Origin: Bdellovibrionota bacterium
Lineage (GTDB): Bacteria; Bdellovibrionota_C; UBA2361; JBGSMV01
NCBI GenBank assembly: GCA_044356455.1
Contig: JBIKWF010000088.1
Coordinates: 1-19,041, forward strand
DNA length: 19,041 bases
Reading direction: 5' to 3'
Part shown: positions 5,050-10,780 of the stretch, in pieces
How positions within the stretch are numbered: the stretch's first letter is position 1
How the letters are laid out: every line of letters starts with the position of its first letter
The notes under the pieces: generated by a model
Seen by the model: the letters and a program-made list of their open reading frames with translations, nothing else
What the model was told of the DNA's origin: nothing
Database searches by the model: none
Made by a program: the position numbers and the translations under genes

Positions 5050-5730
5050 TCAATCCTTGCCAAAAACTTTCGCCAGTAACCCAAGCGCGGCGTCCGAGGA
5101 CAGCTCCATCGCCATCAAGTTCTCGTGATGCGGGTCATGCCCAAGTGTAACAAACCCTAGCCTTGCATAAAAGGCTTCTGCTTGGGGGAGTGCATGCAGA
5201 ACCACCCGGCCACCTAAGCCATTGTAAAGACTGAGTCTAACTGCGCCGATGATCATCTGAGTTCCCACCCCGGAGAACCTAGGTTCTTGTTCGACCTCCG
5301 GAACTCTGAGGTTCCAAGGCGCGGATTCTAGAAACCGCACATAGATGAACTCTCCGATCAGTGGTGCCGCATGATATCCGTCAGCGGACTTTTCATACAA
5401 TCCCAGTCCCTGCCAGTGGGTCTCGGCCTCGATGCCGAAAAAACGTACATCGTCTGCTGCCGTAGAAAGAGATACAGGGTCCACAAGGGGATTAAATCTG
5501 AGAAGTTGCGAAATCTTTCGAGTCCAGCTCCAGTGACCATGCTCAAAATCGAGCTGGCGTAGAGTACCGGCTTGCAAAGCCCTCTCTAAAATGGAAGCCC
5601 GGGCATCCGCCCATTGACGCTCGGCGGTGATGACGGACTGTGCATTCATGCGCGGGTCAAGCGACGCCTCCATCGGTTGCGGCGGACTGCTTTTGTTATC
5701 GCGAAGCCATATTTGCATCTTGTCGAGCAT
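5050..5730 (-). CDS. GNAT family N-acetyltransferase
   Basis: Acetyl-CoA binding motif RFSGVG, plus YVRFLESAPWN and GRVVLHALPQAEAFYARLGF. Confidence 0.85.
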   Translation of the reverse strand: MLDKMQIWLRDNKSSPPQPMEASLDPRMNAQSVITAERQWADARASILERALQAGTLRQLDFEHGHWSWTRKISQLLRFNPLVDPVSLSTAADDVRFFGIEAETHWQGLGLYEKSADGYHAAPLIGEFIYVRFLESAPWNLRVPEVEQEPRFSGVGTQMIIGAVRLSLYNGLGGRVVLHALPQAEAFYARLGFVTLGHDPHHENLMAMELSSDAALGLLAKVFGKD

Positions 5731-5796
5731 GGGAAGAGATTACTCGGTGCGCAGCGGTAATCAACTAACGAGCCATCGCGCAAGCTGTTGATTCGA

Positions 5797-5808
5797 TTGG
5801 AGCTCCAA
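5797..5808. promoter_or_regulatory. perfect 12-bp palindrome TTGGAGCTCCAA between divergent genes (candidate operator)
   Basis: Seen directly. It shares the TGGAGC core with sites at 4733-4771 and 6653-6665. Confidence 0.35.
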
Positions 5809-5991
5809 AGCTCAGCCTGCCAAAAATAAATTATGAAATCTCAAAGGGGCAGATCGTTACTGGCATACTTGTGAAGCGGAGTAGTAGGTAAAAATTCCCC
5901 GCACGCTGCGTAACATTTTCATCGGCTCTCCCCATAACGGAATCGGGTGGGTCTCCGCATAGACCTTTCGGACCTCTTTTGAGTAAGTTCC

Positions 5992-6648
5992 ATGTATTAT
6001 CTTCGCAATCAACTCCTCACTCCGCTGGAAATTCTGGTTACCCTCAACGGGCCCGACTTTGATGTCTCGACCCCGCACGATAGAGCGGTCTTCTATTCCG
6101 GGAATAATTCATTCGAGCGCTCAATAACAGGAGACCCTGGTCGTAAAGGAGAAAACTGGAAAATCGCACAGTTTGTGAGTGAAGGGTCTTCTTGGGTAAG
6201 CATCGGAGATACTCCGGGTGGCAAGTGGCTTGAAGCACAGAACACCAAGCGCTTTGGAAAGGAAATTGACGAGAAACTGTGGGGGGCGGCTTCGTTAGAA
6301 TATGCACGTGCTGCATCGGGAAACGTTTTGGTGTACGTTGAAGGCGCCCTTCCGAACAAAGTTTTTCGCTCCATAGAGTTGCCAGCTCTTCTTCAGAACC
6401 AAAAGGTGAGTTCCATCAATGAGCTTGATTGCGGTGTTTTCCGTTTGATCGCCGCAGCTCACCCAGGTCAGGAAGGACTTGATGAGATTTATAAGCTCAT
6501 CCTTGATCCGGATAGATTCCATTTGCTTCGAGCCAATATTTTGGAGCGCCAGAACGATGGCCTCATTGCCCCAGAAGATTGCTTGCCGCGTGAAATTAGT
6601 AGTTTTCCTCTTCCTCACTCGCGGAGGGTGCTAACGAGGGCTGCGTGA
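5992..6648 (+). CDS. stand-alone ADP-ribosyl cyclase (CD38-like / Tox-ARC-like) domain protein, putative NAD+ glycohydrolase
   Basis: Ordered motifs VFYSG, SIGDTPGG, LWGAASLEYARAASGNVLVYVEG, VFRSIELPAL and KVSSI match CD38 LLWS, [41 protein letters not shown] and KVQTL. Aligned by eye against the remembered CD38 sequence. Confidence 0.72.
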   Translation: MYYLRNQLLTPLEILVTLNGPDFDVSTPHDRAVFYSGNNSFERSITGDPGRKGENWKIAQFVSEGSSWVSIGDTPGGKWLEAQNTKRFGKEIDEKLWGAASLEYARAASGNVLVYVEGALPNKVFRSIELPALLQNQKVSSINELDCGVFRLIAAAHPGQEGLDEIYKLILDPDRFHLLRANILERQNDGLIAPEDCLPREISSFPLPHSRRVLTRAA

Positions 6649-6886: not shown

Positions 6887-7822
6887 TCACAATTGCGAGG
6901 CAAACTCACCAATCCTTTCAAGGATCATCTCAAACGAAGGCTGTCCGGCATAATAAAGCGACGAGCTACGACGATAGGCCTCGGCGTATAGTTTCTGTGT
7001 TCTAGGATTACTTAAGATGAACGCATCATTCCTCGTAAGATCCTTTTCATCTTGCACGCGAAACTTTCTGTTTTTATGAGCATGATATTCTGAAGAGCCT
7101 ATGAAGCTAACAACCCTCTCTTGGCCAAGCAGCTCATATACATCGTGATAATGCCGCATGAAATTAACAGGCATGGTTGTCTGCTGTTGTTGCTGCCTAA
7201 ACTTTTTCGAAATCGCGCTCAGTTTTTCAATCAGCGTATACTCTGGATTATAGCAAGAAACTCCCTTAGCCCGATTATCAAGAAGATCTGCTCCCACTAA
7301 AGCAGCGTGATCATAAACCCAGGATGAAATGTTGTGTGGTTCGTTCGGAGTCGTGACATCAAACCCGATTTCTAGAAGTACAAAAGGTTTAACTCCTTCC
7401 AGTGATTCAAATTGAGTTGGGTAGAGCAGTCTTATGCCGAAGTTCCGCCTATCGGCATCATCAAATTCAATATCTCGCTCGGTTATCATTCCAGGAATTG
7501 AAAGTTTCTCAAAAATCCATTGGAAAAAGACTTCCCGCGACTTTACGTGAGATGGTTTGTCGTGATTCTTCCCGGTCTTTACGTCCATGTTGGGAGGCGG
7601 TTCGATCTGAATATCCACGTCTTCCGAGAATCGCTCAATCATTCTCCACCCCTTGGAGAGGGATGTTCCTCCTTTTAGAGCAAAGGTGAAGTTTTGATTC
7701 TGAAGTCCCCAAAGAGCATGCATTAGCCAATAGTCTTTCTCGATCAACTGCGGACGGATATTCTTTTGTCTAAACAAAAGATAAATTAGCTGCTCAAAAT
7801 CAGTACTATCATGAAGAACTCT
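6887..7822 (-). CDS. AbiEii/AbiGii-family nucleotidyltransferase toxin with a disrupted 5' end (first in-frame start is TTG at 7777; homologous-looking reading frame is open to 7822)
   Basis: Motifs LIEKDYW, LKGGTSLSK, RFSEDVDI, TLIEKLSA and RHYHDVY. Fifteen upstream in-frame codons (RVLHDSTDFEQLIYL) run back to the antitoxin TAG. Confidence 0.88.
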   Translation of the reverse strand, partial: RVLHDSTDFEQLIYLLFRQKNIRPQLIEKDYWLMHALWGLQNQNFTFALKGGTSLSKGWRMIERFSEDVDIQIEPPPNMDVKTGKNHDKPSHVKSREVFFQWIFEKLSIPGMITERDIEFDDADRRNFGIRLLYPTQFESLEGVKPFVLLEIGFDVTTPNEPHNISSWVYDHAALVGADLLDNRAKGVSCYNPEYTLIEKLSAISKKFRQQQQQTTMPVNFMRHYHDVYELLGQERVVSFIGSSEYHAHKNRKFRVQDEKDLTRNDAFILSNPRTQKLYAEAYRRSSSLYYAGQPSFEMILERIGEFASQL

Positions 7823-8410
7823 CTATGAGGCATGGGCAATCAACGCCTCAATTTTCTTTTGAGTGCCAACCTTACCGAAAGACCGCGAAGCTTTTTGAAG
7901 CTTCAAGACAGGTAGCTCGTGTAATCTTCTACGGAGCCGGTCTTCTAAATCATCGGGCGGTTCAAGCAGGTCATTCCAGTTATTTAGAAGGTCAACGAAA
8001 AGAAATTCCTTCGTGAGCTTTGCAGGATAATTGTGCGGACGCTGAAACTGATATTTGAGCCCATCTAAAACAAATTCTCCAACACGCTTTCTGTTATAAA
8101 CAACTTGAACATTGCTCAATTGAGTCATGCCCAAACCTAAGGGATTGTAGATATCAAGCGACGTCAGTAAGAAGTCGTCAGTCTTCAGAAAAGCTCGAAC
8201 AATGTCTCTTTGATCTGCTGGAACTTCCCCCCAACGAGATTGCCTCGGACGATAGTAGAGACCTGCCGCTGGCTGACGTAGAAGCCTCTTCGTTACCAGC
8301 GCTTTCAAGTCGCGATCGACTGCCTTTGAAAACTGCGCGAGCTCGGCACGGCGGTACACTCGGCCGGGTTTCATTGCCTTGAAAAGCATATCTGCGTTTG
8401 GCGTTCTCAC
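7823..8410 (-). CDS. AbiEi-like antitoxin / transcriptional regulator
   Basis: 195 aa; N-terminal wHTH-like PGRVYRRAEL...AVDRDLKALV...GLYYRP and YNPLGLGMTQL motif; directly upstream of the AbiEii-type toxin. Confidence 0.78.
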   Translation of the reverse strand: MRTPNADMLFKAMKPGRVYRRAELAQFSKAVDRDLKALVTKRLLRQPAAGLYYRPRQSRWGEVPADQRDIVRAFLKTDDFLLTSLDIYNPLGLGMTQLSNVQVVYNRKRVGEFVLDGLKYQFQRPHNYPAKLTKEFLFVDLLNNWNDLLEPPDDLEDRLRRRLHELPVLKLQKASRSFGKVGTQKKIEALIAHAS

Positions 8411-8970: not shown

Positions 8971-9106
8971 TAGGGAGCCTCTGAAGAATGTCTTCCTTCT
9001 TAGTTTCTGTGGTGCTGGTGGGTTAGGAGGGCAGCCACTAAGACTACAGAGAGCATAAGGGGTGAAGAAAGTTTACCAATCTTCCGGGTTCTTCAGAGGC
9101 TGCCTA
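8971..9106. mobile_element. 136-bp MITE-like element, TIR TAGG(G/C)AGCCTCTGAAGAA
   Basis: 8971-8988 and the reverse complement of 9089-9106 are 17/18 identical, with TA at both outer ends and internal degenerate CTGTGGT/CTACAGAG arms. Confidence 0.72.
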
Positions 9107-9483
9107 TTGAGCCTTTCAAGAACCTCCATTTTTTCGGGGCAAAGGAGAGTTGCTCTCACAGTGCTCGCGCGTCGTGTTAATCGGTGAAGGCTCTGGTGGC
9201 GGGTAGGGGTGCTATTTGCACTGCGGCTATATACCTTCTTGCTTGCTCCTGGTCTTGATAGTGCCTGCCGCTGCTTCTCTGGCGGGGTTTGAAATGCCGA
9301 GGTTCTCAGAGCGTGCCAAGGGGAAAAGTTGTGCTGATAATTGCGACGTGAGGTTAAACTGAATACGCAGATGCCCTTATATGCAGGGATGAACTTTATT
9401 GTTGGGCGGGAGGGGCGGGACGTACCCGTCTCCGCTCTTACAGGAATAGGGCGATTTGAGCACCATGCCACGCGGAGCCGCGG

Positions 9484-9508
9484 TAACTTTTCGCGGAGCG
9501 AAAAGTTA
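9484..9508. other. perfect 11-bp hairpin at the distal end of the tRNA trailer array
   Basis: TAACTTTTCGC-GGA-GCGAAAAGTTA. It has no U-tract on the minus strand, so it is not a classic terminator. Confidence 0.5.
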
Positions 9509-9688
9509 GGCCCGACCCGGATTTACTGAGTTGTCCCTTCGGGGATCAAATCCGGGTCGAAGAGGCCCGGAGCGGCGAGCGCGAAAAATAGGCCCGACCC
9601 GGATTTACTGAGTTGTCCCTTCGGGGATCAAATCCGGGTCGAAGAGGCCCGGAGCGGCGAGCGCGAAAAATAGGCCCGACCCGGATTT
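9507..9688. repeat. two identical 82-bp tandem units at the tRNA-Cys 3' end, each containing the last 17 nt of the tRNA
   Basis: TAGGCCCGACCCGGATTT recurs at 9507, 9589 and 9671; units 9507-9588 and 9589-9670 are identical. Confidence 0.93.
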
Positions 9689-9743
9689 GAACCGGGGAAT
9701 GACGGTTTTGCAAACCGTTGCCTTACCACTTGGCTATCGGGCC
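9672..9743 (-). tRNA. tRNA-Cys (GCA), CCA not encoded
   Basis: GGCCCGA/TCGGGCC acceptor stem, GCC-AAGTGGTAA-GGC D arm, ACGGT-TTGCAAA-ACCGT anticodon arm, GTTCAAAT T loop and U discriminator typical of tRNA-Cys. Confidence 0.97.
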
Positions 9744-9937
9744 ACTTAAGGTTGAACTGCTAAAAAACCTGCTTCCCGATAGCCAAGTCTCCGTGCAAAG
9801 CACGGAGCCCCCAGAGGGATAACGCTGCGCTATCGGGCCACTTAAGGTTGAACTGCTAAAAAACCTGCTTCCCGATAGCCAAGTCTCCGTGCAAAGCACG
9901 GAGCCCCCAGAGGGATAACGCTGCGCTATCGGGCCAC
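9733..9937. repeat. two identical 96-bp tandem units at the tRNA-Cys 5' end, each containing the first 11 nt of the tRNA
   Basis: GCTATCGGGCCAC recurs at 9733, 9829 and 9925; units 9733-9828 and 9829-9924 are identical. Confidence 0.93.
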
Positions 9938-9948
9938 AAAGAGCCACC

Positions 9949-9977
9949 TTTATACTCATAACGCCCCATGCTGTCAT
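9949..9977 (-). promoter_or_regulatory. sigma70-type promoter for tRNA-Cys
   Basis: Minus strand ATGACA-17 nt-TATAAA followed by the GC-rich discriminator GGTGGC, as in stable-RNA promoters. Confidence 0.6.
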
Positions 9978-10275
9978 CCTTATGCTCTTCTGAAAAATAC
10001 ACCTCCGCGCGCTTCCACGCTCCCTGAGCTGCAGAATCGTCAATTGCTTCTTCAGACGTGGATGCTGAGATGATGAATGGGGCAGTGGGGGGTGTTTCTT
10101 AGTTATTAACAGGGGTGGCCTGTGATCGGCCTGGTTCAGAGGCCTCGGTCGGCGACGTAAGTGCCTGAAATGCCTCGCCAAACTAAAATCATTAAAAAGA
10201 GCCTCAATTCCTAACAGTTTCTGGCCGAGCGCCGATTTCTATTAGCACAGGCATGACACCATCCTTTCTGCGAGT

Positions 10276-10317
10276 AGGGGGGCGATTCAAATAAGTTTGA
10301 ATCTCCCCTCTTTTTTT
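10276..10317 (+). terminator. intrinsic terminator-like hairpin
   Basis: GGGG-C-GATTCAAA/TAAG/TTTGAATC-T-CCCC followed by a T7 tract. Confidence 0.5.
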
Positions 10318-10447
10318 ATCTCCGAGGGAGGCCTTAAAAAGGACCTCAAAGGTGCTCGGCTAACCCTTGTCTTTTTTCTGCAGCTCATTCAGTCTGCGTA
10401 GTGGCTCGTGCCAATTTTCTTAAACTGCAATTTTCTTTTTCAGTCTT

Positions 10448-10780
10448 ATGGCTTACGTCGTCACGCGCGCTTGTCTCGGAACTCTCGACCGCTCTTGCGT
10501 TGAGGTTTGTCCTGTTGATTGCTTCTATTGGATTAAGAAGAAGAAATACAACGACAAATTTGGCATTGGTGCAGCGCGCGGCACGGACGAGGGCATGATG
10601 ATGATTCACCCTGACGAGTGCATTAACTGCGGCGCTTGTGAGACGGAATGCCCCGTTGAGGCGATTTACGAGGATTCAGGCGTTCCTGATAATCTCAAAG
10701 AGTTTGTTAAGATTAATGAGGAAGAAACTTCTTCATTGTCTGACGAAGAGCTAGATAGTGCTCGTTGTACCTCAAAGTAA
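10448..10780 (+). CDS. 7Fe ([3Fe-4S]+[4Fe-4S]) ferredoxin, FdxA-like
   Basis: MAYVVT-x2-C-x7-CVEVCPVDCFY and IHPDECINCGACETECPVEAIY. Confidence 0.92.
   Translation: MAYVVTRACLGTLDRSCVEVCPVDCFYWIKKKKYNDKFGIGAARGTDEGMMMIHPDECINCGACETECPVEAIYEDSGVPDNLKEFVKINEEETSSLSDEELDSARCTSK

Follow-up and report, generated by a model that had tools for sequence, protein, structure and literature searches.

The only tRNA-Cys(GCA) gene found in this Bdellovibrionota genome (completeness 93%) lies within an array of gene-less fold-back units which, on the minus strand of the 19,041-nt window (the whole stretch of DNA analysed), runs from a putative promoter through two 96-bp units, the tRNA, two 82-bp units and an 11-bp hairpin (Table 1). 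The array quite plausibly records two independent colonisations by fold-back modules, each later doubled in tandem, and the best explanation for the modules themselves, held with moderate confidence, is that they are selfish, gene-less, single-strand DNA elements spread by an enzyme acting in trans. The order of parts had been described in an earlier, sequence-only reading of this DNA and was confirmed by ARAGORN and Rfam for the tRNA, by Tandem Repeats Finder (period 96, 2.1 copies, 100%, 9733-9937; period 82, 2.3 copies, 98%, 9498-9688) and by pairwise identity of 100% both between the two 96-mers and between the two 82-mers.

Table 1. Parts of the tRNA-Cys array, in minus-strand order and in window coordinates
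Feature	Position	Strand	Remark
Putative sigma70-type promoter	9949-9977	minus	ATGACA-17-TATAAA, by eye; inferred start ~9942
Outer 5' unit, 96 bp	9840-9935	minus	stump of tRNA 1-11 at 9925-9935
Outer 5' unit, 8-bp hairpin	9885-9903	minus	
Outer 5' unit, antisense arm to tRNA 3-16	9871-9884	minus	followed by 31-nt linker
Inner 5' unit	9744-9839	minus	same sequence as outer; stump 9829-9839, hairpin 9789-9807
Inner 5' unit, antisense arm	9775-9788	minus	linker 9744-9774
tRNA-Cys(GCA)	9672-9743	minus	ARAGORN and Rfam, 69.1 bits; intact; CCA not encoded
First 3' unit, 82 bp, TLR type	9590-9671	minus	box A motif 9652-9665
First 3' unit, antisense to tRNA 54-67	9628-9641	minus	
First 3' unit, short hairpin	9615-9626	minus	GAA loop
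First 3' unit, copy of tRNA 56-72	9590-9606	minus	preceded by A-rich linker
Second 3' unit	9508-9589	minus	same sequence as first; box A 9570-9583
Second 3' unit, antisense arm	9546-9559	minus	
Second 3' unit, copy of tRNA 56-72	9508-9524	minus	
Closing hairpin	9484-9508		perfect 11 bp; 3-nt loop, plus strand C[GGA]G

Each unit folds back on itself, its antisense arm pairing with its own copy of the tRNA end. The 5' unit comprises a sense stump of tRNA positions 1-11, a 40-nt spacer with an 8-bp hairpin, an exact 14-nt antisense arm to positions 3-16 and a 31-nt linker; the 3' unit comprises a 30-nt trailer, an exact 14-nt antisense arm to positions 54-67 (17 nt if one mismatch is allowed), a short hairpin with an A-rich linker, and a copy of positions 56-72. 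The design first proposed for both units was a direct copy of the adjacent tRNA end, a 14-nt inverted copy of the same end and a stable internal hairpin: both kinds of copy are present, although the arms are near-terminal and do not match the very termini, and the 8-bp hairpin of the 5' unit has no equal in the 3' unit, where the inner hairpin has just 3-4 bp and the main helix is that of antisense arm and sense copy. The promoter and closing hairpin proposed at the same time exist as sequences, but neither was called by the scans; the promoter misses the strict rule of the consensus promoter scan, and the hairpin lacks a T-run and drew no call from the terminator scan. A coding role for the region was rejected, no Pfam match being found for the 152-aa frame that overlaps it (9723-10181) or for two frames downstream, as was membership of a known RNA family, only the tRNA scoring meaningfully in the Rfam scan; no further copies of the whole 96-bp or 82-bp units were found elsewhere in the genome.

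The doubling itself withstood comparison with read data, which covered 4 of 24 listed runs and gave unitig depths for three DNA runs from three studies, one of them possibly the source sample. Unitigs of the units reached ~1.5-2.9 times the depth of the flank unitigs in all three (15.1 and 20.9 against 10.1/9.4; 11.7 and 10.4 against 6.3/4.0; 14.6 and 13.2 against 6.1/5.6), and among the pieces listed the 5' unit-to-unit junction is crossed by pieces of runs X2 and X3. Because of this roughly twofold depth and these junction pieces, a repeat collapsed or duplicated in assembly is extremely improbable, even though the copies are 100% identical and none of the listed contigs or pieces spans the whole array; relatives, moreover, have tandem units that differ by point changes. 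The single-copy outcome that an assembly duplication would give, named beforehand as the alternative, was not seen.

Tandem repeats of this general kind, TLRs, have been known in E. coli since 1978, their function being unknown; they are defined as lying downstream of a tRNA or rRNA gene with each unit ending in 18-19 bp of the gene's 3' end, occur in one to five tandem copies per locus, include the 178-bp repeats of tyrT/tyrV and RttR, and in the TLR text of that source are described only downstream of genes (PMC8144298). The 3' unit is firmly of TLR type: it lies downstream of tRNA-Cys in the same orientation, in two tandem copies, and ends in tRNA 56-72 (17 nt) and the following A, 18 nt in all, CCA not being encoded. 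The 5' unit lies upstream and copies tRNA 1-11, which places it outside that definition; it is a mirror variant, working like a TLR's mirror image. Likeness to the E. coli repeats extends from tandem, gene-less units downstream of a tRNA with an 18-19 bp copy of the gene's 3' end to the internal anatomy, as inspection of the tyrT region revealed an imperfect antisense arm to tRNA 56-77 that forms a stem with the 3' copy, giving the same antisense arm, hairpin-rich spacer and closing stem; the two differ in unit length (178 bp at tyrT/tyrV, 82 bp here) and in the mirror 5' type, seen only here. Sequence likeness between the 82-bp unit and the E. coli unit is not significant (258 of 2000 shuffles score as well), and in 9000-10500 the Rfam RtT covariance model had no match at E values up to 10. 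The TLR text of PMC8144298 makes no mention of antisense arms, which its supplement alignments might show, and neither such arms nor 5' units were found described in the literature covered, older and subscription papers lying outside its scope.

A tRNA-targeting family of miniature elements, one of the possibilities raised from the sequence alone, is borne out by the recurrence of the design at many tRNA kinds of the order. The sample comprises 244 tRNA genes in seven genomes, 47 from this genome and 197 from six relatives (taken from 30 loci per genome out of 34-44 matches each); as four relatives were picked as kin or for their Cys units, all frequencies describe a non-random sample, and because the genomes are kin the P values given here and below overstate. 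Full units, with both sense and antisense parts, flank 46/244 genes on the 3' side and 12/244 on the 5' side, the load ranging from 2/47 tRNA genes in this genome to 16/32 in relative G013. Cognate antisense fragments lie downstream of 63/244 genes and upstream of 17/244, against means of 8.6 and 2.6 for a control with non-cognate tRNAs of the same genome, and cognate sense fragments lie downstream of 55/244 and upstream of 29/244, against 3.2 and 6.8. In this genome the design recurs, whole or in part, at four further tRNAs: a 3' unit complete with arm and copy follows Val(CAC), Trp and Met are preceded by 5' units, and the 3' copy at tRNA-Asp is interrupted. Orthologous tRNA-Cys genes are patchily occupied, with a 3' fragment in 18 of the 73 that have enough downstream DNA (both kinds in 12) and a 5' fragment in 3/78; tRNA-Cys of the same-genus genome G001 is followed by a single 3' unit and lacks a 5' unit, the layout of the Cys 5' unit recurs in G034, where the arm has a gap of one base, and decayed stumps remain in G015 and G084 (by eye). 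Searches for the Cys 5' unit returned three metagenome matches to its junction pattern, none at a tRNA, and its stump-plus-arm pattern in one of 124 genomes of the class, its own. In the viral collection the core motif described below had one match, off a tRNA, and the 3' pattern had none; as the latter was too strict (5/124 genomes), little can be read into these near-empty results.

The symmetry of the locus, for which the sequence-only reading knew of no parallel, is real but neither unique nor coupled. Five genes in the sample are two-sided (Asp in G001, Trp in G013, Asn and Met in G084, and this tRNA-Cys), where 3.4 would be expected by chance within genomes (P=0.19); a coupled 5'+3' design was therefore rejected, and the two-sided layout is best read as two independent events. 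The two units, called unrelated in the sequence-only reading, are indeed unrelated to each other, whereas modules of both recur in units at other tRNAs. A common 3' core, consisting of an arm ending in GAAC, an optional small hairpin, an A-rich run and a sense copy, occurs at Cys, Asp, Met, Asn, Lys, Trp, Ser, Arg, Gly, Pro, Tyr, Ala and Leu. The spacer of the Cys 5' unit begins, directly after the stump, with the right half of a core hairpin known at other tRNAs, joined at a common TAGC. A covariance model of 28 3' cores gave 32 matches in five genomes (150 candidates scored per genome), and all 30 matches with loci lie downstream of a same-strand tRNA, many of them being training sequences; a pair count on the core (92% paired) is partly circular, the cores having been chosen by those matches, and is not used as support. 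The core hairpin was found at 39 public loci, 18 of them <450 nt from a tRNA gene and mostly titled Bdellovibrionota or Deltaproteobacteria, and some of the 39 may repeat genomes already counted. Away from tRNA genes it occurs as a free intergenic repeat in Treponema-type records (L311, L313, L316, L320 and L328, with further ones in L330, L332, L337, L339 and L347). The box A motif lies 6-7 nt downstream of five further tRNA genes, on the tRNA strand (G000 C24, C114, C177, C186 and C200), and is tandem at Thr(CGT) and Phe.

The arms match the tRNA beside them: one spacer recurs at five tRNA kinds (Cys, Thr, Gly, Arg and Asn), its arms retargeted each time, and arms in G001 and G005 lag behind, retaining a base that fits another tRNA allele. 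Since the linkers of 33 units cluster by genome (permutation P=0.0004) but show no such grouping by amino acid (P=0.11), units would appear to move between tRNA genes and to be retargeted there, although the same clustering could also reflect gene conversion without true transposition. On the 5' side, the break of the sense stump falls inside the stretch covered by the antisense arm in 12 of the 12 units that have both parts, where shuffling expects 4.5 (P=2e-5); these units were listed by hand, leaving out single-part genes and upstream matches due to the 3' unit of an adjacent tRNA; one of the twelve is borderline, and the orthologous Trp units are not independent. This rule is partly structural, as some Asp sense copies resume beyond hairpins inserted in them, on either side of which the arm pairs; in some units the stumps are interrupted by further hairpins. 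The break points themselves range from tRNA position 11 to 47, so that of the targeting of tRNA ends first suggested, the tRNA part stands and the restriction to ends does not.

Hairpins with C[GNA]G loops, a three-base class (GNA) that is a stable, DNA-favoured fold, number 45 in 143.5 kb of tRNA flanks, whereas 1.5 Mb of this genome has 23, i.e. 31 against 1.5 per 100 kb or ~20-fold, the control being drawn from one genome; the sense strand has 17 of those in the flanks and the opposite strand 28. For other loop classes the rise near tRNAs is 2-4 fold, and RNA-type cUNCGg loops occur twice. Spread at the level of DNA is argued for by this enrichment on both strands together with the stumps broken by hairpins, by the patchy occupation of orthologous tRNA-Cys genes and the clustering of linkers by genome, by the single spacer at five tRNA kinds and the arm spanning the break in 12/12, by the occurrence of the core hairpin away from tRNA genes in Treponema-type records, and by the position of small GIY-YIG genes, 19/27 of which lie near a tRNA or tmRNA gene against 0/3 UvrC loci. 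Such spread might begin when heavy transcription or replication leaves a tRNA gene's sense strand single-stranded, allowing the arm of a donor unit to pair across a site in the gene. A trans-acting enzyme would then make a hairpin-specific nick (small stand-alone GIY-YIG nucleases and Y1/HUH enzymes are candidates), and template-switch repair would copy the unit in while duplicating the gene end, leaving an intact tRNA; fold-back copying could subsequently perfect the arm against its new host tRNA, and the 11-18-nt direct repeats could then give tandem copies through slippage or unequal crossing between them. Insertion may be tolerated by the host if the arm is bound by its own sense copy, cut away or absent from the transcript.

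Several observations count against spread as DNA, among them the missing ties to GIY-YIG genes and to the SRM motif and the G-U bias of the arms, all described below. No unit holding both an internal gene and an antisense arm was found; an E. coli mobilome study attributed the raised coverage of tyrT-rttR to RNA/DNA hybrids and not to circles (10.1101/2024.07.17.603846); and co-transcription of the units is predicted to abolish the acceptor stem, a cost that a neutral passenger should not impose. The last of these touches on a possible, though doubtful, alternative, in which the units are an RNA device under selection, their co-transcribed arms competing with the cloverleaf to tune or time tRNA maturation, and/or tRNA-processing enzymes freeing unit-length small RNAs from them, a release likened to E. 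coli RrA/B/F. Some 5' units sit between the tRNA genes of one cluster and are therefore probably transcribed. In folding predictions, the 5' arm of tRNA-Cys is more stable on the real tRNA (-27.8 kcal/mol) than on its own stump (-18.1 kcal/mol) and forms a 14-bp helix with the nascent tRNA, to which a 5-nt overhang (tRNA 12-16) beyond the reach of the stump could seed strand exchange; within the 460-nt precursor, forming the cloverleaf carries a cost of +17.8 kcal/mol. Predicted acceptor-stem probability falls at equilibrium from ~0.9-1.0 to <=0.02 in 12/12 genes with 5' units, in part through competition of the stump for it, and an essential tRNA might cope if the stump trapped the arm kinetically, if cleavage came early or if transcription began at an inner site. 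In a scan of the linkers for an internal promoter, a TAnnnT hexamer scoring at least 4 was found in 4/12 last linkers, not including that of Cys, and in 80/226 controls.

Strand-specific signals bear on the same alternative. Across 90 arms, mismatches permit G-U pairing on the tRNA strand in 20 cases against two on the opposite strand, with 43 transversions, a bias absent from the sense copies (4:6); this fits an RNA fold as well as it would fit single-stranded DNA of the sense strand. The core motif is on the tRNA strand in 13/13 cases and the box A motif in 11/11, E. coli units share the anatomy, and E. coli TLRs in rRNA operons are transcribed, processed and bound by Hfq and CsrA, whereas the 19 in tRNA operons scored <0.01 for CsrA binding in the same source (PMC8144298). 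Doubt about an RNA device arises from the absence of units at most orthologous tRNA-Cys genes (no 3' fragments at 55/73, no 5' fragments at 75/78), from break points and arms that vary freely, from loops of a DNA-favoured type on both strands and from the lack of an apparent regulatory input; coverage in the single RNA run examined (X24, share 0.06) is confined to tRNA-like pieces and gives no evidence of expression. If the units did act in RNA, they would control in cis how the tRNA of an essential, single-copy gene matures.

Fold-back template switching yields a sense-antisense-sense order, and it has to be considered whether the units are neutral scars, formed by template switches at tRNA hairpins as sense-antisense-sense triplications, later joined by unrelated palindromic repeats and homogenised through gene conversion, without dedicated mobility. 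That order, arms that follow the local tRNA, an inner hairpin that itself matches tRNA 40-51 in G005, G015 and G046, and the failure to find an enzyme link are all in keeping with such an origin. It nonetheless seems distinctly unlikely, given that the spacers are not copies of local DNA and are conserved across tRNA kinds and genera, that the order arm-GAAC-hairpin-A-rich-ACTGC-sense is fixed, that the covariance matches with loci lie without exception downstream of a same-strand tRNA (training sequences included), and that the part shortened or interrupted is nearly always the sense copy, not the arm. Even neutral units would explain why many tRNA flanks break assemblies and mimic att sites in environmental genomes.

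In integrative elements at tRNA genes the duplicated tRNA end keeps the gene intact, as it does here, and decoy att sites that divert integrases from the essential tRNA-Cys gene had been among the first proposals. Integrase-like ORFs (by eye) do lie directly downstream of tRNA-Cys in the three relatives G033, G025 and G019 (loci L009, L012 and L027), marking it as an integration site in the order; all four distant tRNA-Cys 3' fragments examined, however, start at 28-33, in the anticodon arm and outside both sense copies, the units copying 1-11 and 56-72, and a decoy would have no need of antisense arms. Decoys were accordingly rejected for the resident integrases and are very improbable in general. 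The units further differ from tRNA-integrating elements in having an antisense arm and neither integrase nor cargo, and their break points are unlike those of the islands at tRNA-Cys in the order. Integron attC sites have consensus ends RYYYAAC...GTTRRRY, and no such ends were found in the units.

Precedents for movement in trans are offered by REP/REPIN with RAYT and by IS200/IS605, in which hairpin repeats are moved as single strands with the target chosen by base pairing. The present units are likewise gene-less hairpin repeats, and would on the preferred reading also move in trans as single strands to a target chosen by base pairing; unlike REPs, they lack GTAG and have CGTC only within the tRNA, carry target-matched arms of 14-20 nt, duplicate part of their target, and as whole units are confined to a single locus instead of many copies. 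Three Y1-type matches occur in this genome, one adjoining a different repeat family. A CGTC-type palindromic repeat is present in 18 copies (G000 C191, C190, C146 and C168), four of them near a Y1_Tnp gene on C191, and the two are likely a REP/RAYT pair.

Small stand-alone GIY-YIG genes, common in the order and hairpin-rich in their flanks, form a second group of candidates. SsnA cuts single-stranded DNA beside a hairpin, which two separate strands can form, and Ssn nucleases are GIY-YIG proteins of cd10448 associated with NTS/SRM hairpin repeats, tRNA not being mentioned in the main text of that paper (PMC11893778). The genes of the order are comparable in being small, single-domain, of a size class similar to SsnA, flanked by hairpins and placed at tRNA or tmRNA ends: among the top 30 loci, 19 of 27 lie within ~1.5 kb of a tRNA or tmRNA gene, and tRNA-proximal cassettes occur at His, Ala and tmRNA, with none at Cys. 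This genome's one small GIY-YIG gene, a 92-aa stand-alone frame with a repeated hairpin leader (G000 C146 10511-10789, L035), lies ~600 bp downstream of tRNA-His, among other repeats. The units here differ from the Ssn system in having no SRM motif, which was matched nowhere at the tRNA-Cys array and at 1/27 small GIY-YIG loci, and no adjoining GIY-YIG gene (0/39 core-motif loci); presence of the gene is not significantly associated with Cys 3' units (11/18 with units, 21/55 without, P=0.11), and the link is a lead only. Two tmRNA genes (L103 in G009, L122 in G072) were also noted that have 5' stumps and hairpin inserts and a GIY-YIG gene downstream.

Whatever moves them, the locus and its relatives yield a set of rules in which the arm is retargeted to each host tRNA and spans the break while spacers spread within a genome. 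An extension of DNA-level spread, improbable enough to be put forward only tentatively, is that the antisense arm acts as a programmable 14-20-nt guide fixing the point of cutting or strand transfer in the tRNA gene for a small nuclease or a transposase supplied in trans; that a 5' or 3' version would then result according to which tRNA end is duplicated is offered just as tentatively. Such an arm would be a new, compact way of targeting DNA insertion, and the guide reading, if true, an undescribed guide-directed insertion system that would account for E. coli TLRs after almost 50 years.

The surroundings of the array contain several further features. Divergent from tRNA-Cys, at 10250-10320 on the plus strand of the window, lies a candidate small RNA of ~70 nt with a near-invariant 20-26-nt 5' part that includes a Shine-Dalgarno-complementary stretch, a covarying hairpin and a T-run; present in 30/80 tRNA-Cys loci (many too short to reach it) and once in this genome, it had no Rfam match and looks undescribed. 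A conserved GCCGAT-like hexamer upstream of it resembles a sigma28 promoter. An FdxA-like ferredoxin gene is also divergent from tRNA-Cys (10448-10780, plus strand), and on the minus strand at 6887-8410 an AbiEii-type nucleotidyltransferase toxin, with an upstream partner that found no match, probably forms a type IV toxin-antitoxin pair. Two ORFs in 5050-6648 gave matches below the cut-off, one being GNAT-like and the other, of 218 aa, weakly similar to ADP-ribosyl cyclase. Outside the window, G000 C209 10252-10685 carries a tRNA-Leu(TAA) gene with a 348-nt intron, group I-like by eye, and partial tRNA copies upstream.
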